A stretch of 64,000 bases of DNA, from assembly GCF_016026235.1 (NCBI RefSeq), contig NZ_CP065613.1. One strand, written 5' to 3'. The notes under the pieces are model-generated. The model saw only the letters and a list, made by a program, of their open reading frames with translations. It did no database searches and was not told the origin of the DNA. The translations under genes and the position numbers were made by a program. The number at the start of each line of letters is the position of its first letter. The first letter of the stretch is position 1. Below are positions 30,120 through 50,009 of the stretch, in pieces. Origin of the DNA: Escherichia coli. Lineage in GTDB: Bacteria; Pseudomonadota; Gammaproteobacteria; Enterobacterales; Enterobacteriaceae.

Positions 30120-31208
30120 TTAGAACTGGTAAACGATACCCACAGCAACGGTGTCGTCAGAACCTACGCCCAGTTTGTTGTCAGAATCGATCTGGTTGAT
30201 GATGTAGTCAACATAGGTGGACATGTTTTTGTTGAAGTAGTAGGTTGCGCCCACTTCAAAGTAGTTCACCAGATCAACATCACCGATAACTTCTACGTCT
30301 TTCGCTTTAGATTTGGTGTAAGCGATGGACGGACGCAGACCGAAATCGAACTGGTATTGCGCAACTAACAGAACGTCTTGCGTTTTGTTGGCGAAGCCGC
30401 TGATGTTTGTAAATTTATTAGTGATCGGCGTAGCGTTACGCGTTTCACCGTAGTTCGCTGCCAGGTAGATGTTGTTCGCATCATACTTCAGACCAGTAGC
30501 CCACTGTTCAGCTTTTTTACCGTTGCCAAGAAGTTGAGCTTCTTGCAGGTTGGTACGGTCAGCTGCACCATAAGCACCAACGATACCAAAGCCTTCGTAT
30601 TCGTAGCTGATAGAACCGCCAACACCGTCGCCGTTAGAGCGGCGTGCAGTGTCACGCTCGTTTTTACCCAGGTACTGAACAGCGAAGTTCAGGCCATCAA
30701 CCAGACCAAAGAAGTTGGAGTTACGATAGGTAGCAACGCCGCCAACACGACCAACGAAGAAGTCATCGCTGTATGCAGTATCACCACCAAATTCTGGCAG
30801 CATATCGGTGTAACCCAGTGCATCATAAACCACACCGTAGTTACGGCCGTAATCGAAAGAACCAACGTCAGCGTATTTAAGACCCGCGAATGCCAGACGC
30901 GTTTTGTTACCAGTTTGAGCGTCAGCGCCTTCAGAGTTGTTACCCTGGAAGTTATATTCCCACTGACCATAACCGGTCAGATCGGAATTGATTTGAGTTT
31001 CCCCTTTAAAACCAAGACGGGCATAAGTTTTGTCGCCGTTTCCGCCGTAACTGTTTACACCATTGTCTTTAGAAAAATAATGCAGACCGACAGCTTTACC
31101 GTACAGATCTACTTTGTTGCCATCTTTGTTATAGATTTCTGCAGCGTTTGCAGTACCTGCTACTAACAGAGCAGGGACGATCACTGCCAGAATATTGCGC
31201 TTCATCAT
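30120..31208 (-). CDS. ompF: outer membrane porin F
   Basis: 362-aa [51 protein letters not shown]-terminal ...VGIVYQF. Confidence 0.97.
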
Positions 31209-31319: not shown

Positions 31320-31425
31320 GCAGGCATCTTTCCATTCAAACTAACGTTTCGCTACCGTGAAAGTGCTACAAAGATAAAGATTTGGTTTCAAAAAGAAAAA
31401 TATGTAACCAAAAGTAAAATTTAAG
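31320..31425 (-). promoter_or_regulatory. ompF promoter region with OmpR-binding sites
   Basis: Reverse complement contains TTTTCTTTTTGAAACCAAATCTTTATCTTTGTAGCACTTTCACGGTAGCGAAACGTTAG, which I recognise as the OmpR F-site region upstream of ompF; exact site boundaries not determined. Confidence 0.6.
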
Positions 31426-31770
31426 GAACTTTGTGAACACCGTCATATTTCCATAGAGGCGTGATGATATTTACAGCAATTTTTATCTATTTATATGATT
31501 TCCTTATATTTAAATTAACTAAACGGAAATTTTGTTTCTGATGGAAACTTTATCGACCTAGCACAAAATCCTCTTTCAGACATCCGGAATGCCAAAAAAT
31601 GGTATGAAAATTGTGCTATCAGCTAAGAAAAAACTAATCCGCAATAAGAATGCGGGTTATTTTTTTGTGCGTAAATGTTGCAATGTAATATTCTGTAACA
31701 GGATGATCGTTATGGCGGGGTTGCAAATAGATTGATTGACTTAACAAACAGATAACTTGACAGAAAGGAT

Positions 31771-40216: not shown

Positions 40217-41172
40217 AATTGTTTTCCTTCCAGTTGAGTGGGCTGCCAGATGCGTTGGCGAATATCGACTTTTTTCGGCACCAGACGGTTTTCATAAAAC
40301 AGATCTGCCGTTTGCTGCTGTAAGGCGGCAACCTCGGCGTTAACCGGTTTGATGGTGGTAGGAGGGCGATGATCTAAGTAAGAGGCAATCACCGGTGCCG
40401 GTAAGCCCATCGTTTTTGCCAGTAAAGCGATGCTTTGTTCGCGCTGGCTGCGGGTTAACGCATCGGCCTCACTAAAGGTTGCCAGTACACCCTGAATAAA
40501 AGCGCCGTTTTTTTCTGCATAGGGACGAGCTGCCAGATAAAACGATCCAGTTTGATTGAGATCGGTGCCGTCTTTCAGCACCCGCACGCCGCCCTGTAAT
40601 AACGCAGCGGAGTAGTAGGGATCCCAGATAGCCCAGGCGTCAATGTTACCTTGCTGGAACGCGGCGCGGGCATCGGCAGGCGTCAGGTAAGTGGGCTGGA
40701 TATCGGTGAATTTAAGTCCGGCCTGACGCAGTGCACGCAGTAAAAGGTTGTGTGAACTGGAACCTTTCTGAAAGGCAACTTTGTGACCTTTAAGATCGGC
40801 TACGGTTTTGATCGGGCTGTTTTCTGCCACCAGAATCACTTCGGCTTTGGGCTTTGGTGGCTCGACGCCCACATATACCAAATCAGCCCCGGCAGCCTGG
40901 GCAAAGATTGGCGGAATATCCCCGGTACTGCCGAGATCAATACTGCCAACGTTTAACGCCTCAAGCATTTGCGGGCCAGCGGGGAACTCCACCCACGAGA
41001 TTTTTGTTTGCGGATAGCGTTTTTCCAGCATTTGGTAATTTTTCGCCAGCACCGAACTGATGTTGCTTTTCTGATAGCCAATCCTTAACGCCTCTGGCGA
41101 AGACTCTGCAGCAACCGCGAGTGTAGAGACGCTAAGTAAACCCGCCAGCGCCAGTTTAATGATCTTACGCAT
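40213..41172 (-). CDS. ssuA: aliphatic sulfonate-binding periplasmic protein
   Basis: ORF 40213-41214; likely start [21 protein letters not shown] (signal peptide). Confidence 0.88.
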
Positions 41173-41740
41173 GGGCATTACCTCGCAGAGAATGAAGATC
41201 AGGAACCTGAACATCGCGGCGGTGCAATGCCTGCCAGAAAGTTTCTAGCGCGGTATCAAGACGGGTTTGCAGATTTGGCGTGAACTGCGGCTTGTGGTGG
41301 TAATCAATTACTTGTGAGTCATCGGCAAACACGCCGTGCAGGATCTCCTGGGCTTTCAGCGCACTTAAAACTGGCTTAAGGGCATAATCGACCGCCAGCA
41401 GATGGGCCACCGTACCGCCCGTCGCCAGCGGTAGCACCACTTTGCCTTGCAACGCACGTTCTGGCAGCAGGTCGAGCAGGGTTTTCAGCGCACCGGAATA
41501 AGCGGCTTTATACACAGGCGTGGCGACAATCAGCCCGTCAGCCTGTTGCAACTGTTCGGTGAAGGTATTGAGTGCCGGACTATCGAAACGAGCATAAAGC
41601 AGATCTTCCGGGGCGAAGTTTTGCAGATTCCAGTGATAAACCTCTACATCCAGGCCATTTAGTTTTTCCCGCGCATATTCCAGCAAGGAGCTGGAGCGAG
41701 AAGGAAAGCGAGGACTACCCGCCAGGGTGATGACACGCAT
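41165..41740 (-). CDS. ssuE: NADPH-dependent FMN reductase
   Basis: 191-aa [30 protein letters not shown]. Confidence 0.92.
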
Positions 41741-42095
41741 ACTCTCTCCTTATAACCAATTGTTCTTGTTTTGTTAACATTGATAACAATTCGGTCAGTC
41801 TGTCGGAGAGACAAGAAAATGCCAAATATAAATTTTGTGTATCTTTTTCTGAAAATAAACTAAAGAAAGGGCTTTATATATCACGCATATTTATTTGTTG
41901 GATAGTCATTAGATGTTGAATCAATGAATTACTCGTTCAGTTAATATTTAAATATTCATGAAATCTATAAATTAAAGATTTGTCACTTATTGGATTTAGT
42001 ATGCTTGATTTAAATGGCGGACAATTGTTGTTATTATTAAGTCTAATGTCATTTAAAGGCATTATCATATTTACGAAGAGATCAGGATGATAACG

Positions 42096-42638
42096 ATGAA
42101 AAAAAGTGTATTGACGGCGTTTATAACTGTGGTATGTGCAACGTCCAGCGTTATGGCTGCTGATGATAATGCTATCACGGATGGCTCAGTAACATTTAAT
42201 GGTAAAGTTATTGCTCCAGCTTGTACCCTGGTAGCTGCGACGAAAGATTCAGTAGTCACATTGCCAAATGTCAGCGCCACCAAGTTGCAAACTAATGGAG
42301 CAGTCTCTGGCGTTAAAACTGATGTACCAATTGCCTTAGAAGGCTGTGATGTTACTGTAACTAAAAATGCGACGTTTACCTTTAGTGGTACGGCTGACGG
42401 CGTGCAACCTACAGCATTTGCCAACCAGGCTACCACCGATGCAGCGACGAATGTTGCTCTACAAATGTATCTGCCAGATGGTTCTACATCGGTAACTCCC
42501 GGTACCGAAACGTCGAATATTCAGTTAGCGGATTCTGCTGAGCAAACAGTGACCTTTAAAGTTGATTATATCGCTACGGGGAAAGCGACTTCTGGTAATG
42601 TGAATGCGGTAACAAATTTCCATATTAACTATTATTAA
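42096..42638 (+). CDS. elfA: fimbrial major subunit (chaperone-usher fimbriae)
   Basis: ORF 42087-42638; start MKKSVLTAFITVVCATSSVMA preceded by AGGA; fimbrial C-terminal pattern. Confidence 0.88.
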   Translation: MKKSVLTAFITVVCATSSVMAADDNAITDGSVTFNGKVIAPACTLVAATKDSVVTLPNVSATKLQTNGAVSGVKTDVPIALEGCDVTVTKNATFTFSGTADGVQPTAFANQATTDAATNVALQMYLPDGSTSVTPGTETSNIQLADSAEQTVTFKVDYIATGKATSGNVNAVTNFHINYY

Positions 42639-42720
42639 TAGAACTCATTAATTGTTTTATTAATTAGTACCCCTCTAGTGTTCTGGAGGGGATATTCATA
42701 TTTTTTAAGAGTGACTATTT

Positions 42721-43422
42721 ATGAAAACTTGCATAACAAAGGGAGTTGTGACCGTAAGTTTAACGGCAATATTACTCAGCTGTTCGTCCACATGGGCGGC
42801 AGGTAAAGGCGGGGTTGGACTTGCAGCAACACGTCTTGTTTATTCGGAAGGTGAAGAGCAAATTTCACTGGGTGTACGTAACACCAGTCCGGATGTTCCT
42901 TATCTGATTCAGTCATGGGTGATGACACCAGATAATAAAAAATCAGCGGACTTTATTATTACACCACCGTTATTTGTGCTGAATCCGGCAAATGAGAATC
43001 TGTTACGCATTATGTACATTGGTGCGCCGTTGGCGAAAGACAGAGAAACCCTTTTCTTCACTAGCGTACGGGCAGTCCCTTCAACAACGAAGCGGGAAGA
43101 GGGAAATACCCTGAAGATTGCCACACAAAGCGTCATCAAACTTTTCTGGCGACCAAAAGGTTTAGCGTATCCCTTAGGCGAGGCTCCGGCGAAACTGCGT
43201 TGCACTTCGTCAGCTGACATGGTTACGGTCAGTAACCCAACACCTTATTTCATTACCCTGACAGACCTGAAAATAGGTGGAAAAGTAGTTAAAAATCAAA
43301 TGATTTCCCCCTTTGATAAATACCAATTCTCTCTGCCAAAGGGGGCCAAAAATAGCAGCGTAACGTATCGAACCATCAATGACTACGGGGCGGAAACGCC
43401 GCAACTCAACTGTAAATCGTAA
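42721..43422 (+). CDS. elfD: periplasmic fimbrial chaperone
   Basis: 233-aa ORF with signal peptide; PapD-like. Confidence 0.88.
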   Translation: MKTCITKGVVTVSLTAILLSCSSTWAAGKGGVGLAATRLVYSEGEEQISLGVRNTSPDVPYLIQSWVMTPDNKKSADFIITPPLFVLNPANENLLRIMYIGAPLAKDRETLFFTSVRAVPSTTKREEGNTLKIATQSVIKLFWRPKGLAYPLGEAPAKLRCTSSADMVTVSNPTPYFITLTDLKIGGKVVKNQMISPFDKYQFSLPKGAKNSSVTYRTINDYGAETPQLNCKS

Positions 43423-43446
43423 GCCGTCTTCAGTTAAGAGAGCGAG

Positions 43447-47108
<3,662 letters not shown>

Positions 47109-47119
47109 CGCGTGAACGT

Positions 47120-47662
47120 ATGAAGAAAAAAACGATATATCAGTGCGTTATTTTGTTCTTTAGCCTTCTTAACATCCATATCGGGATGGCTGGGCCTGAA
47201 CAAGTGAGTATGCATATTTATGGTAATGTGGTCGATCAGGGCTGTGATGTCGCCACCAAAAGTGCATTACAAAATATTCATATTGGTGATTTTAATATCA
47301 GTGATTTTCAGGCCGCGAATACCGTAAGCACTGCTGCTGATTTGAATATCGATATCACCGGTTGTGCCGCTGGTATTACTGGCGCGGACGTCCTTTTTAG
47401 CGGCGAGGCTGACACCCTTGCGCCGACACTGCTCAAACTAACTGACACAGGCGGAAGCGGTGGTATGGCAACGGGGATTGCCGTGCAAATTCTTGATGCG
47501 CAAAGTCAGCAAGAAATCCCGCTCAATCAGGTCCAGCCTCTTACGCCCTTAAAAGCCGGGGATAACACACTCAAATATCAACTTCGTTATAAGTCCACAA
47601 AGGCGGGAGCAACGGGCGGTAATGCGACGGCGGTTCTCTATTTTGATCTGGTTTACCAGTGA
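47120..47662 (+). CDS. ycbU: fimbrial-like subunit
   Basis: 180-aa ORF with signal peptide, fimbrial subunit pattern. Confidence 0.85.
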   Translation: MKKKTIYQCVILFFSLLNIHIGMAGPEQVSMHIYGNVVDQGCDVATKSALQNIHIGDFNISDFQAANTVSTAADLNIDITGCAAGITGADVLFSGEADTLAPTLLKLTDTGGSGGMATGIAVQILDAQSQQEIPLNQVQPLTPLKAGDNTLKYQLRYKSTKAGATGGNATAVLYFDLVYQ

Positions 47663-47669
47663 AGGAGTG

Positions 47670-48185
47670 ATGTTGAAACGGATAATCTGGATTCTGTTCT
47701 TACTGGGATTAACGTGGGGCTGTGAGCTATTTGCCCATGATGGCACGGTCAACATTAGCGGATCGTTTCGCCGTAATACATGCGTGCTGGCACAGGATAG
47801 CAAGCAAATCAATGTGCAGTTAGGCGATGTCTCGATGACACGTTTTTCTCATGGGAATTATGGCCCGGAGAAATCTTTCATCATTAATTTGCAGGATTGC
47901 GGAACTGATGTCAGCACGGTTGACGTCACCTTTTCAGGAACCCCCGACGGAGTGCAGAGCGAAATGCTGTCCATTGAAAGTGGTACGGATGCAGCCAGTG
48001 GGCTGGCAATTGCGATTCTGGATGATGCGAAGATATTGATTCCGCTTAACCAGGCGAGTAAAGACTACAGCCTACATAGCGGTAAGGTGCTATTAACTTT
48101 TTATGCGCAATTGCGACCTGTCAATAGCGATGTGCAGTCGGGTAAAGTGAATGCCAGCGCGACATTTGTACTTCATTATGACTAA
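47670..48185 (+). CDS. ycbV: fimbrial-like subunit
   Basis: ORF 47622-48185; likely start MLKRIIWILFLLGLTWG. Confidence 0.8.
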   Translation: MLKRIIWILFLLGLTWGCELFAHDGTVNISGSFRRNTCVLAQDSKQINVQLGDVSMTRFSHGNYGPEKSFIINLQDCGTDVSTVDVTFSGTPDGVQSEMLSIESGTDAASGLAIAILDDAKILIPLNQASKDYSLHSGKVLLTFYAQLRPVNSDVQSGKVNASATFVLHYD

Positions 48186-48888
48186 TACGTGGAACAGATT
48201 AGCGCTCTTGATTTTCGCCGTTTTATCGCTGCTGGTGGCGGGTGAATTGCAGGCAGGAGTGGTGGTCGGCGGAACGCGATTTATCTTTCCGGCAGACAGA
48301 GAATCGATATCTATTTTACTGACTAATACCAGTCAGGAATCCTGGCTTATTAACAGCAAAATCAATCGCCCAACGCGTTGGGCCGGGGGGGAAGCGTCGA
48401 CAGTGCCAGCACTATTACTGGCCGCTCCGCCACTTATTCTCCTGAAGCCCGGTACTACAGGCACGTTGCGCTTGCTGAGAACGGAAAGCGACATCTTGCC
48501 TGTGGATCGCGAAACGCTATTTGAGTTAAGCATTGCCAGCGTGCCATCCGGCAAAGTTGAAAATCAGAGCGTAAAAGTGGCGATGCGCTCGGTATTTAAA
48601 CTGTTCTGGCGACCCGAAGGTTTGCCGGGCGACCCGCTGGAAGCTTATCAACAATTACGCTGGACACGGAATTCGCAGGGTGTACAACTCACTAACCCAA
48701 CGCCTTACTACATTAACCTGATTCAGGTGAGCGTAAATGGTAAAGCGTTAAGTAATGCGGGAGTTGTGCCGCCTAAAAGCCAGCGTCAGACAAGCTGGTG
48801 TCAGGCAAAAGCACCGTGTCATGTTGCCTGGCGGGCGATAAATGATTACGGCGGGTTGAGTGCAAAGAAGGAGCAAAATCTGCCCTGA
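48178..48888 (+). CDS. ycbF: periplasmic fimbrial chaperone-like protein
   Basis: ORF 48151-48888; start uncertain (48151 or 48178 MTNTWNRLALLIFAV...). Confidence 0.75.
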   Translation: MTNTWNRLALLIFAVLSLLVAGELQAGVVVGGTRFIFPADRESISILLTNTSQESWLINSKINRPTRWAGGEASTVPALLLAAPPLILLKPGTTGTLRLLRTESDILPVDRETLFELSIASVPSGKVENQSVKVAMRSVFKLFWRPEGLPGDPLEAYQQLRWTRNSQGVQLTNPTPYYINLIQVSVNGKALSNAGVVPPKSQRQTSWCQAKAPCHVAWRAINDYGGLSAKKEQNLP

Positions 48889-48998
48889 TACAGGTTCGGA
48901 AAACGTTTGCGTTTTTTTTGCCGCAGGTCAATTCCCTTTTGGTCCGAACTCGCACATAATACGCCCCCGGTTTGCACACCGGGAATCCAGGAGAGTTC

Positions 48999-50009
48999 AT
49001 GTACTACCCCTTCGTTCGTAAAGCCCTTTTCCAGCTCGATCCAGAGCGCGCTCATGAGTTTACTTTTCAGCAATTACGCCGCATTACCGGAACACCGTTT
49101 GAAGCACTGGTGCGGCAGAAAGTGCCTGCGAAACCTGTTAACTGCATGGGCCTGACGTTTAAAAATCCGCTTGGTCTGGCAGCCGGTCTTGACAAAGACG
49201 GGGAGTGCATTGATGCGTTAGGCGCGATGGGATTTGGATCGATCGAGATCGGTACCGTCACGCCACGTCCACAGCCAGGTAATGACAAGCCGCGTCTCTT
49301 TCGTCTGGTAGATGCCGAAGGTTTGATCAACCGTATGGGCTTTAATAATCTTGGCGTTGATAACCTCGTAGAGAACGTAAAAAAAGCCCATTATGACGGC
49401 GTCCTGGGTATTAACATCGGCAAAAATAAAGATACGCCAGTAGAGCAGGGCAAAGATGACTATCTGATTTGTATGGAAAAAATCTATGCCTATGCGGGAT
49501 ATATCGCCATCAATATTTCATCGCCGAATACCCCAGGATTACGCACGCTGCAATATGGTGAAGCGCTGGATGATCTCTTAACCGCGATTAAAAATAAGCA
49601 AAATGATTTGCAAGCGATGCACCATAAATATGTGCCGATCGCAGTGAAGATCGCGCCGGATCTTTCTGAAGAAGAATTGATCCAGGTTGCCGATAGTTTA
49701 GTTCGCCATAATATTGATGGCGTTATTGCAACCAATACCACACTCGATCGTTCTCTGGTTCAGGGAATGAAAAATTGCGATCAAACCGGTGGCTTAAGTG
49801 GTCGTCCGCTTCAGTTAAAAAGCACCGAAATTATTCGCCGCTTGTCACTGGAATTAAACGGTCGCTTACCGATCATCGGTGTTGGCGGCATCGACTCGGT
49901 TATCGCTGCGCGTGAAAAGATTGCTGCGGGTGCCTCACTGGTGCAAATTTATTCTGGTTTTATTTTTAAAGGTCCGCCGCTGATTAAAGAAATCGTTACC
50001 CATATCTAA
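48999..50009 (+). CDS. pyrD: dihydroorotate dehydrogenase (quinone)
   Basis: ORF 48972-50009; start [28 protein letters not shown]. Confidence 0.95.

Follow-up and report, generated by a model that had tools for sequence, protein, structure and literature searches.

The elfADCG-ycbUVF fimbrial operon of an Escherichia coli genome and the palindrome in its AT-rich control region, most likely a by-product of composition

The closest described relative of the locus analyzed here is the elfADCG-ycbUVF operon of Escherichia coli K-12 (b0938 to b0944), also known as ycbQRST and, in O157:H7, as the operon for the laminin-binding ELF fimbriae. The same seven genes, in the same order and at the same ssuE/pyrD locus, lie on a 64,000-nucleotide stretch of E. 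coli contig NZ_CP065613.1 (assembly GCF_016026235.1), referred to below as the window. A preliminary description, made from the letters of this stretch, had presented them as a cryptic chaperone-usher cluster behind an AT-rich upstream region, of the kind seen at silenced promoters, with a perfect palindrome. The operon, its cryptic state, its association with H-NS, its counter-silencing by SlyA, and its adhesive function when expressed are all already known from K-12 and O157:H7. The useful outcome of the present analysis is a negative one, and it concerns the palindrome.

Published work on K-12 and O157:H7 covers both regulation and function. According to Korea 2010, as summarized in PMC5797941, the elf operon shows little expression under laboratory conditions, is repressed by H-NS, and is functional when placed under a constitutive promoter. 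Both elf and the divergent ssuEADCB operon were flagged as H-NS associated in the chromatin immunoprecipitation data sets of Grainger, Kahramanoglou, and Oshima (PMC5797941 Table 2), and overproduction of SlyA raised expression of elfADCG-ycbUVF 2.7-fold and of ssuEADCB 3.6-fold (PMC5797941). SlyA also shifts a 355-bp ssuE-elfA fragment in an electrophoretic mobility shift assay (EMSA) (Curran et al., PMC5797941), the best site proposed by the authors, TCAGGATGATAA, being a weak one (PMC5797941). The same intergenic region is one of 78 "promoter islands," for which an H-NS-dependent, heterochromatin-like state has been proposed (PMC3661553). For O157:H7 Sakai, electron microscopy showed Ycb fimbriae when a Tet promoter drove their expression, and these fimbriae promoted both adhesion and the early stage of biofilm formation (PMC7098969); Ycb belongs to the gamma-1 class (PMC7098969). 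The description of the operon as cryptic, silenced in the manner of H-NS, and expressible if derepressed agrees with this body of work (PMC5797941, PMC3661553, PMC7098969). The checks that had been proposed for it, dependence on hns and an EMSA of the upstream region, have largely already been performed on the K-12 orthologue.

Identity and intactness of the fimbrial operon

Comparison at the sequence level indicates that the window locus is very probably the known E. coli ELF/Ycb chaperone-usher operon, elfADCG-ycbUVF. This high confidence is a joint figure that covers the identity of the locus, silencing (as shown in K-12), intactness of the genes, and the palindrome as a by-product of composition. 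Seven intact genes on the plus strand (42096 to 48888) are placed between a divergent ssuE and a codirectional pyrD as in K-12, according to the open reading frame (ORF) list, Pfam domains, and synteny. When positions 41000 to 49500 were used as a megablast query, matches were found in 5425 of 5426 complete E. coli genomes, in features annotated as ssuE, elfA (or "fimbrial protein"), elfD, elfC, elfG, ycbU, ycbV, ycbF, and pyrD, including b0937 to b0945 of K-12 MG1655. Synteny and annotation agree in 4000+ E. coli genomes, K-12 among them.

The first gene, elfA (ycbQ; 42096 to 42638, plus strand), encodes a major fimbrial subunit of 180 amino acids and is a variable allele (Pfam Fimbrial, PF00419, 1.4e-17; start as given by the NCBI Prokaryotic Genome Annotation Pipeline [PGAP]). 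It is followed on the same strand by elfD (42721 to 43422), encoding a periplasmic PapD-like chaperone of 233 amino acids (PapD_N, 4.7e-36; PapD_C, 6.6e-15), and by elfC (43447 to 46047), encoding an outer-membrane usher of 866 amino acids (PapC_N, 3.6e-49; Usher, 9.7e-223; PapC_C, 7.1e-18). The product of elfG (46038 to 47108, plus strand) is a two-domain, tip-adhesin-like protein of 356 amino acids, in which an N-terminal domain with no Pfam match precedes a C-terminal pilin domain (residues 211 to 356). Two further plus-strand genes with the Fimbrial domain (PF00419) encode minor subunits: ycbU (47120 to 47662; 180 amino acids) and ycbV (47670 to 48185; 171 amino acids by the curated start, the mechanical ORF beginning at 47622). 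The last gene, ycbF (48151 to 48888, plus strand), encodes a second PapD-like chaperone with PapD_N and PapD_C domains, 245 amino acids long by the PGAP start; the annotated K-12 start lies 27 nucleotides later. The assignment of these seven codirectional genes to a major subunit, a chaperone, an usher, an adhesin-like protein, two extra subunits, and a second chaperone had been made from the letters, and Pfam agrees with it throughout.

All seven ORFs had also been called intact, and all seven are full length against their K-12 counterparts. Aligned end to end with the products of b0939 to b0944, ElfD and YcbU are 98% identical and ElfC, ElfG, YcbV, and YcbF are 99% identical, with equal lengths, which together with the synteny from ssuE through elf to pyrD bears out the name given to the operon. 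ElfA is 85% identical to the K-12 protein (180 versus 179 amino acids), and the changes fall mostly within residues 57 to 150, as expected for a variable major pilin. In ElfC, 8 of the 11 substitutions relative to K-12 lie within the last 60 residues (45850 to 46047). The divergence of ElfA, whose gene has 34% GC at third codon positions (GC3), and the C-terminal cluster in ElfC suggest allelic exchange or diversifying selection.

Structural relatives are consistent with these assignments. The best solved relatives of ElfA in a structure-database comparison are FimA chains. Residues 33 to 356 of ElfG align with residues 4 to 326 of PDB 5afo_A (E = 5e-27), which is LpfD of E. coli (PMC8978812). 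This near-full-length match upholds the view of ElfG as tip-adhesin-like, and it implies a predicted two-domain adhesin architecture as in LpfD.

From family membership, the periplasmic chaperone ElfD, and probably YcbF as well, would carry ElfA pilins, and donor-strand exchange at the ElfC usher would polymerize them. The minor subunits would be YcbU and YcbV, and the adhesin would be the LpfD-like, two-domain ElfG. Because all seven genes are intact, ELF fimbriae would be expected in the present strain if the operon were derepressed.

Neither Pfam nor the neighboring annotation revealed a regulator gene in or beside the operon, and a simple scan of the plus strand between the operon and the PyrD leader showed no obvious intrinsic terminator. 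That leader (Rfam RF02373; 48931 to 49004, plus strand; 97.9 bits, E = 2e-16) belongs to pyrD and forms the right flank just past ycbF. It was the only hit in an Rfam scan of 41000 to 49500 (E of at most 1), which returned nothing upstream of elf.

The AT-rich control region and its palindrome

Between ssuE and elfA lies a 355-bp divergent control region of 28% GC (41741 to 42095), recognized by its composition, by its place in the promoter island list, and as the SlyA EMSA fragment: the primers TC49 and TC50 of PMC5797941 match 41741 to 41762 and 42076 to 42095 of the window exactly. At 28.2% GC against 51.1% for the 64-kb window, it is the lowest 355-bp stretch there, with only 0.06% of intervals of this length reaching so low a value. 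The strong AT-richness reported for the upstream region stood up as a window minimum. The length of 346 bp given for it did not, and becomes 355 bp with the curated ElfA start, since both PGAP and the K-12 annotation begin the protein at the second ATG, 42096 (MKKSVL...), and 42087 is an upstream in-frame ATG. The operon itself is slightly low in GC (47.5% versus 51.6%). The region differs from K-12 at four positions in the alignment, none of them in the palindrome or in the candidate promoter hexamers, and the AT-richness is kept at orthologous loci, with 27.9% GC in Escherichia sp. E1V33, of a cryptic lineage, and 30.7% in Pseudocitrobacter.

The same AT-rich region also controls the divergent ssuEADCB operon, which the preliminary description had overlooked. 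The first gene of that operon and the left flank of elf, ssuE (41165 to 41740, minus strand), encodes an NADPH-dependent FMN reductase (Pfam FMN_red, 2.9e-36; annotation in homologous records). By consensus scan, a candidate ssuE promoter, TTCAGA-17-TATATT, is predicted at 41825 to 41853 on the minus strand, both of its hexamers lying in blocks that the Escherichia cryptic lineage retains. Further conserved blocks lie upstream of it, so that the candidate promoter and the blocks together span 41825 to 41900 in the ssuE-proximal part. No mapped ssuE start site was found in the literature searched, and the promoter position is a prediction. van der Ploeg et al. (1999) reportedly mapped sites for Cbl, CysB, and IHF in the ssu promoter region.

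On the other side, elf transcription would start within the 355-bp, 28%-GC region. The best candidate elfA promoter from the consensus scan is TTTAAA-17-TATTAT (42009 to 42037, plus strand), with a 17-bp spacer and a TG-extended -10, and its hexamers are invariant in five of five aligned alleles. RpoD genomic SELEX (systematic evolution of ligands by exponential enrichment) lists the same arrangement as the elfA promoter (PMC3946193). By extension from K-12, where both effects have been shown, H-NS bound to this AT-rich DNA would keep the region silent in the laboratory, and SlyA, which binds the 355-bp fragment, would counter the silencing.

The palindrome had been put forward as a site at which a regulator might bind. 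It is real: AATATTTAAATATT, a perfect 14-bp palindrome equal to its own reverse complement, lies exactly at 41943 to 41956. Its role as a regulator site is unsupported. It is most likely a composition by-product of AT-rich DNA and not a dedicated operator, because palindromes of this length arise by chance in shuffled sequence, because the dyad is broken or absent elsewhere while its flanks are conserved, because the operon has no regulator gene of its own, and because no SlyA or LysR-type motif fits. At most, the palindrome would be part of a nonspecific binding surface for H-NS, IHF, or SlyA.

The shuffles were dinucleotide-preserving and covered the 355 bp, and 329 of 5000 (6.6%) contained a perfect palindrome as long or longer (14 bp or more). 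The surrounding 101 bp (41900 to 42000) are present in 4020 E. coli genomes, at 99% identity or more in 3698 of them. The dyad is broken in two minor E. coli alleles, which account for 146 and 148 genomes (about 294 together) and have AATAAGTAAATATT and AATAAAGAAAGATT at the site; one example of each, KE55-type and WP2-W18-type, was read. In Escherichia sp. E1V33 the alignment places unrelated sequence at the palindrome, and the Pseudocitrobacter upstream region holds no palindrome longer than 8 bp. Elements near the palindrome are invariant, or almost so, across five aligned alleles: ATTCATGAAATCTATAAATTAA, TTTAAA (42009 to 42014), TATTAT (42032 to 42037), GGCATTATCATATTTACGA, and the ribosome-binding region. 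Two marks of an operator, a dyad beyond what local composition yields by chance and its conservation across orthologous promoters, were both absent.

The alternative is that the palindrome is, in the major allele, a genuine operator for elfA, ssuE, or both, bound by a dimeric regulator of the SlyA/MarR type or another. Its dyad symmetry is perfect, and it lies 53 to 66 bp upstream of the candidate -35, a plausible position for an activator or a repressor. SlyA binds somewhere in the 355-bp fragment, where the best published site is weak, and TTAATATTTAAA at 41941 to 41952 is one mismatch from TTAN6TAA. However, the intergenic region contains no exact match to this SlyA consensus (0.74 expected) and no LysR-type T-N11-A dyad with arms of at least 5 bp, and no regulator gene accompanies the operon. 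The shuffled sequences match or exceed the palindrome length as often as stated above. The KE55-type allele, the WP2-W18-type allele, and E1V33 all break the dyad while keeping the adjacent blocks, and Pseudocitrobacter lacks it. A dedicated operator is accordingly a very improbable account of the palindrome, which is not worth pursuing as a regulator site without a scrambling control first.

An invertible promoter of the fim type, giving phase variation, has next to no chance of being correct. ElfA is FimA-like and of the gamma-1 class, and the region contains several imperfect inverted repeats, but these are short and 78 to 87% matched, as is typical of AT-rich DNA. Moreover, no recombinase ORF is adjacent, and every genome examined shows one orientation only.

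Other motifs lie close to the palindrome. The IHF core consensus, WATCAANNNNTTR, is matched exactly (AATCAATGAATTA) on the plus strand at 41919 to 41931, 12 bp upstream of the palindrome, and the core of this match, GATCAATG, is invariant in the five aligned alleles; the 64-kb window holds seven matches to this consensus versus 2.4 expected. The allele alignment also defines a conserved block adjoining the palindrome, ATTCATGAAATCTATAAATTAAA (41953 to 41975). Within it, TCTATAAATT (41964 to 41973) departs at a single position from the H-NS nucleation motif tCGATAAATT. As a signal this motif was rejected as uninformative: allowing one mismatch, TCGWTWAATT has 17 matches in the window versus 15.9 expected.

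Several points weigh against the account given here, of an intact, silenced ELF operon with a fortuitous palindrome. The shuffle probability, about 0.066, comes close to nominal significance. The palindrome is intact in the major allele, which says little, as that allele is about 99% identical throughout. The candidate elfA promoter is a prediction, matching 9 of 12 consensus positions in a region where such matches come easily. Silencing and SlyA counter-silencing in the present strain are extrapolated from K-12, and ElfA is a divergent allele (85%) whose competence for assembly is assumed.

Elsewhere in the window, the second most AT-rich stretch (31360 to 31714, 30.4% GC) is also intergenic and lies upstream of a minus-strand ORF of 362 amino acids (30120 to 31208). 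To judge from K-12 gene order, these are presumably ompF and its regulatory region.

Loss, distribution, and insertion sequences

Some 25% of E. coli genomes have no elf operon, and in these ssuE lies 236 bp from pyrD. Alignment of the junction with strain 1105 defines an elf indel of about 7.09 kb (41809 to 48898), comprising most of the AT-rich region and all seven genes. Homology to the empty site stops 68 bp upstream of the start codon of ssuE, at about 41808, and restarts at 48899, 11 bp past the ycbF stop. The empty-site junction is present in 1353 genomes, with an identity of at least 99% in 1311, and the elf-side sequence in 4020. Ycb has been recorded from phylogroups A, B1, D, and E but not from B2 (Wurpel et al. 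2013, PMC3559732), and the elf-less genomes presumably belong to B2.

In place of the operon, elf-less strains carry a 69-bp filler (record L004, 1810 to 1878) in which no similarity to elf sequence is detectable. The filler was considered as a remnant of elf and rejected: its local alignment score was 11 versus a shuffle mean of 9.5, a score reached by 108 of 500 shuffles, and BLAST found matches of at most 13-mers.

The indel takes in about 287 bp of the AT-rich region, including the palindrome and the predicted ssuE promoter, which by junction mapping falls inside the segment missing from elf-less genomes. These strains keep intact ssu genes. When the interval between ssuE and pyrD in an elf-less strain was scanned for promoters, no consensus match appeared; the scan misses the pyrD promoter too, which makes this negative uninformative.

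These limits bear on a further alternative, that the AT-rich region was shaped mainly as the control region of ssuEADCB, with Cbl, CysB, and IHF sites, and that elf silencing is incidental. The divergent ssuE shares the region and is coregulated by SlyA and H-NS, and the candidate ssuE promoter and conserved blocks (41825 to 41900) and the IHF match (41919 to 41931) all lie within it. However, the elfA-proximal 200 bp are equally part of the AT-rich stretch, and everything to the right of about 41808 was inherited with the elf genes and is absent where elf-less genomes keep intact ssu genes. The two roles are also not exclusive. A region shaped chiefly for ssu is an unlikely account.

The order ssuE-elf-pyrD is not confined to E. 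coli: Escherichia sp. E1V33 shares it, as does Pseudocitrobacter (SsuE 87%, ElfC 66% over its full length, pyrD downstream). Because the same ssuE/pyrD locus is held in both, synteny points to the operon as an old resident of the locus, missing from some E. coli, and not a recent import. The term "xenogeneic" that had been applied to the silencing is loose in this respect: the AT-richness and the link to H-NS hold, and recent import appears the less likely origin in view of the synteny, although the operon is slightly low in GC and is a presence/absence polymorphism. A search of genome contigs with ElfD returned 11 loci, none of them from E. albertii or E. fergusonii, so that the synteny in E1V33 and Pseudocitrobacter is what bears on whether the empty or the elf-bearing site is ancestral. 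In Pseudocitrobacter vendiensis (record L008, 3801 to 7037), the ssuE orthologue (87%) is immediately flanked by pepN and by the elf-like operon, and the ssuADCB genes are missing from the interval, so that an orphan ssuE faces the fimbrial promoter. Short contigs (241 to 766 bp; records L007, L011, and L012) from assemblies under the names Colwellia sp. TT2012 and Amycolatopsis orientalis encode ElfD 99% identical to that of E. coli, and these are most likely contamination with E. coli DNA.

Insertion sequences (IS) have reached the locus in individual strains. FDAARGOS_943 matches the window at 100% identity over the locus plus 14.5 kb of flank; the next best genomes reach only 99.0 to 99.2% over 8.5 to 14.5 kb, and the lineage of the window is rare among RefSeq complete E. 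coli genomes. FDAARGOS_943 carries 1695 bp extra (record L002, 1547 to 3239), in which a 916-bp IS5-family element occupies the TA at 42045/42046, about 8 bp past the candidate -10 and so coinciding with the predicted elfA +1. Nested within that element, 4 bp from its left end, is an IS1 with a 9-bp duplication, gtctaggct. In strain 2018-05-2CC (record L019, 3036 to 3800), an IS1-mediated deletion runs from the equivalent of window position 41936 through elfA, and elfC also contains an IS1. In strain VL7S7 (record L005, 5248 to 7399), elfC is truncated by IS1 and the locus is rearranged beside the cspG/torS region.

An alternative view is that the operon is a relic on its way out, maintained by drift, and that it is cryptic because it is nonfunctional and not because it is silenced. 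The 1353 empty-site genomes, the absence from B2 (PMC3559732), the IS disruptions in single strains, the IS at the promoter in the nearest genome, and the poor laboratory expression would all fit. Against this, the seven ORFs are intact here and in thousands of genomes aligned over their full length, and the operon and its locus are conserved as far as Pseudocitrobacter, with a full-length usher at 66%. The fimbriae are also functional when expressed, with laminin, epithelial-cell, and biofilm phenotypes reported (PMC5797941, PMC7098969). The relic explanation is improbable on this evidence, and an intact operon under silencing is the better description.

Two minor leads bear on the loss and re-activation of cryptic adhesin operons: the limits of the elf indel, which overlaps the predicted ssuE promoter, and the IS at the elfA promoter of a near-identical strain. 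With the K-12-type ssuE promoter and activator-binding region (predicted at 41825 to 41900) on the indel, regulation of ssu may be wired differently in elf-less lineages and be coupled to H-NS/SlyA silencing of elf in elf-positive strains. Insertion at the elfA +1 in FDAARGOS_943 could disrupt the promoter or could activate the operon in the manner of bgl, for which IS-mediated activation is classic. Rewiring of ssu, or bgl-like activation in FDAARGOS_943, is offered tentatively, as a possibility we would not favor at present.

Comparison with known fimbrial and silenced systems

Measured against the K-12 elf operon, the palindrome and the candidate promoter of the window are identical, and the differences lie in the ElfA allele and the last 60 residues of ElfC. 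Type 1 fimbriae (fimAICDFGH) are alike in belonging to the gamma-1 chaperone-usher class (assigned per PMC7098969) and in a major subunit, FimA, that ElfA is near. Unlike type 1 fimbriae, elf has neither the FimB/FimE recombinases nor an invertible fimS, it encodes a second chaperone, and its adhesin is LpfD-like and not FimH-like. The likeness to long polar fimbriae is confined to LpfD (5AFO), to which ElfG is moderately similar over nearly its whole length; elf is a different operon at a different locus. With the yad, yeh, and sfm fimbriae, bgl, and the promoter islands, elf shares an AT-rich upstream region, poor laboratory expression, association with H-NS, and counter-silencing of the SlyA/LeuO type. 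Unlike the other H-NS-silenced cryptic operons, elf shares its silenced region with a regulated metabolic operon, ssuEADCB.

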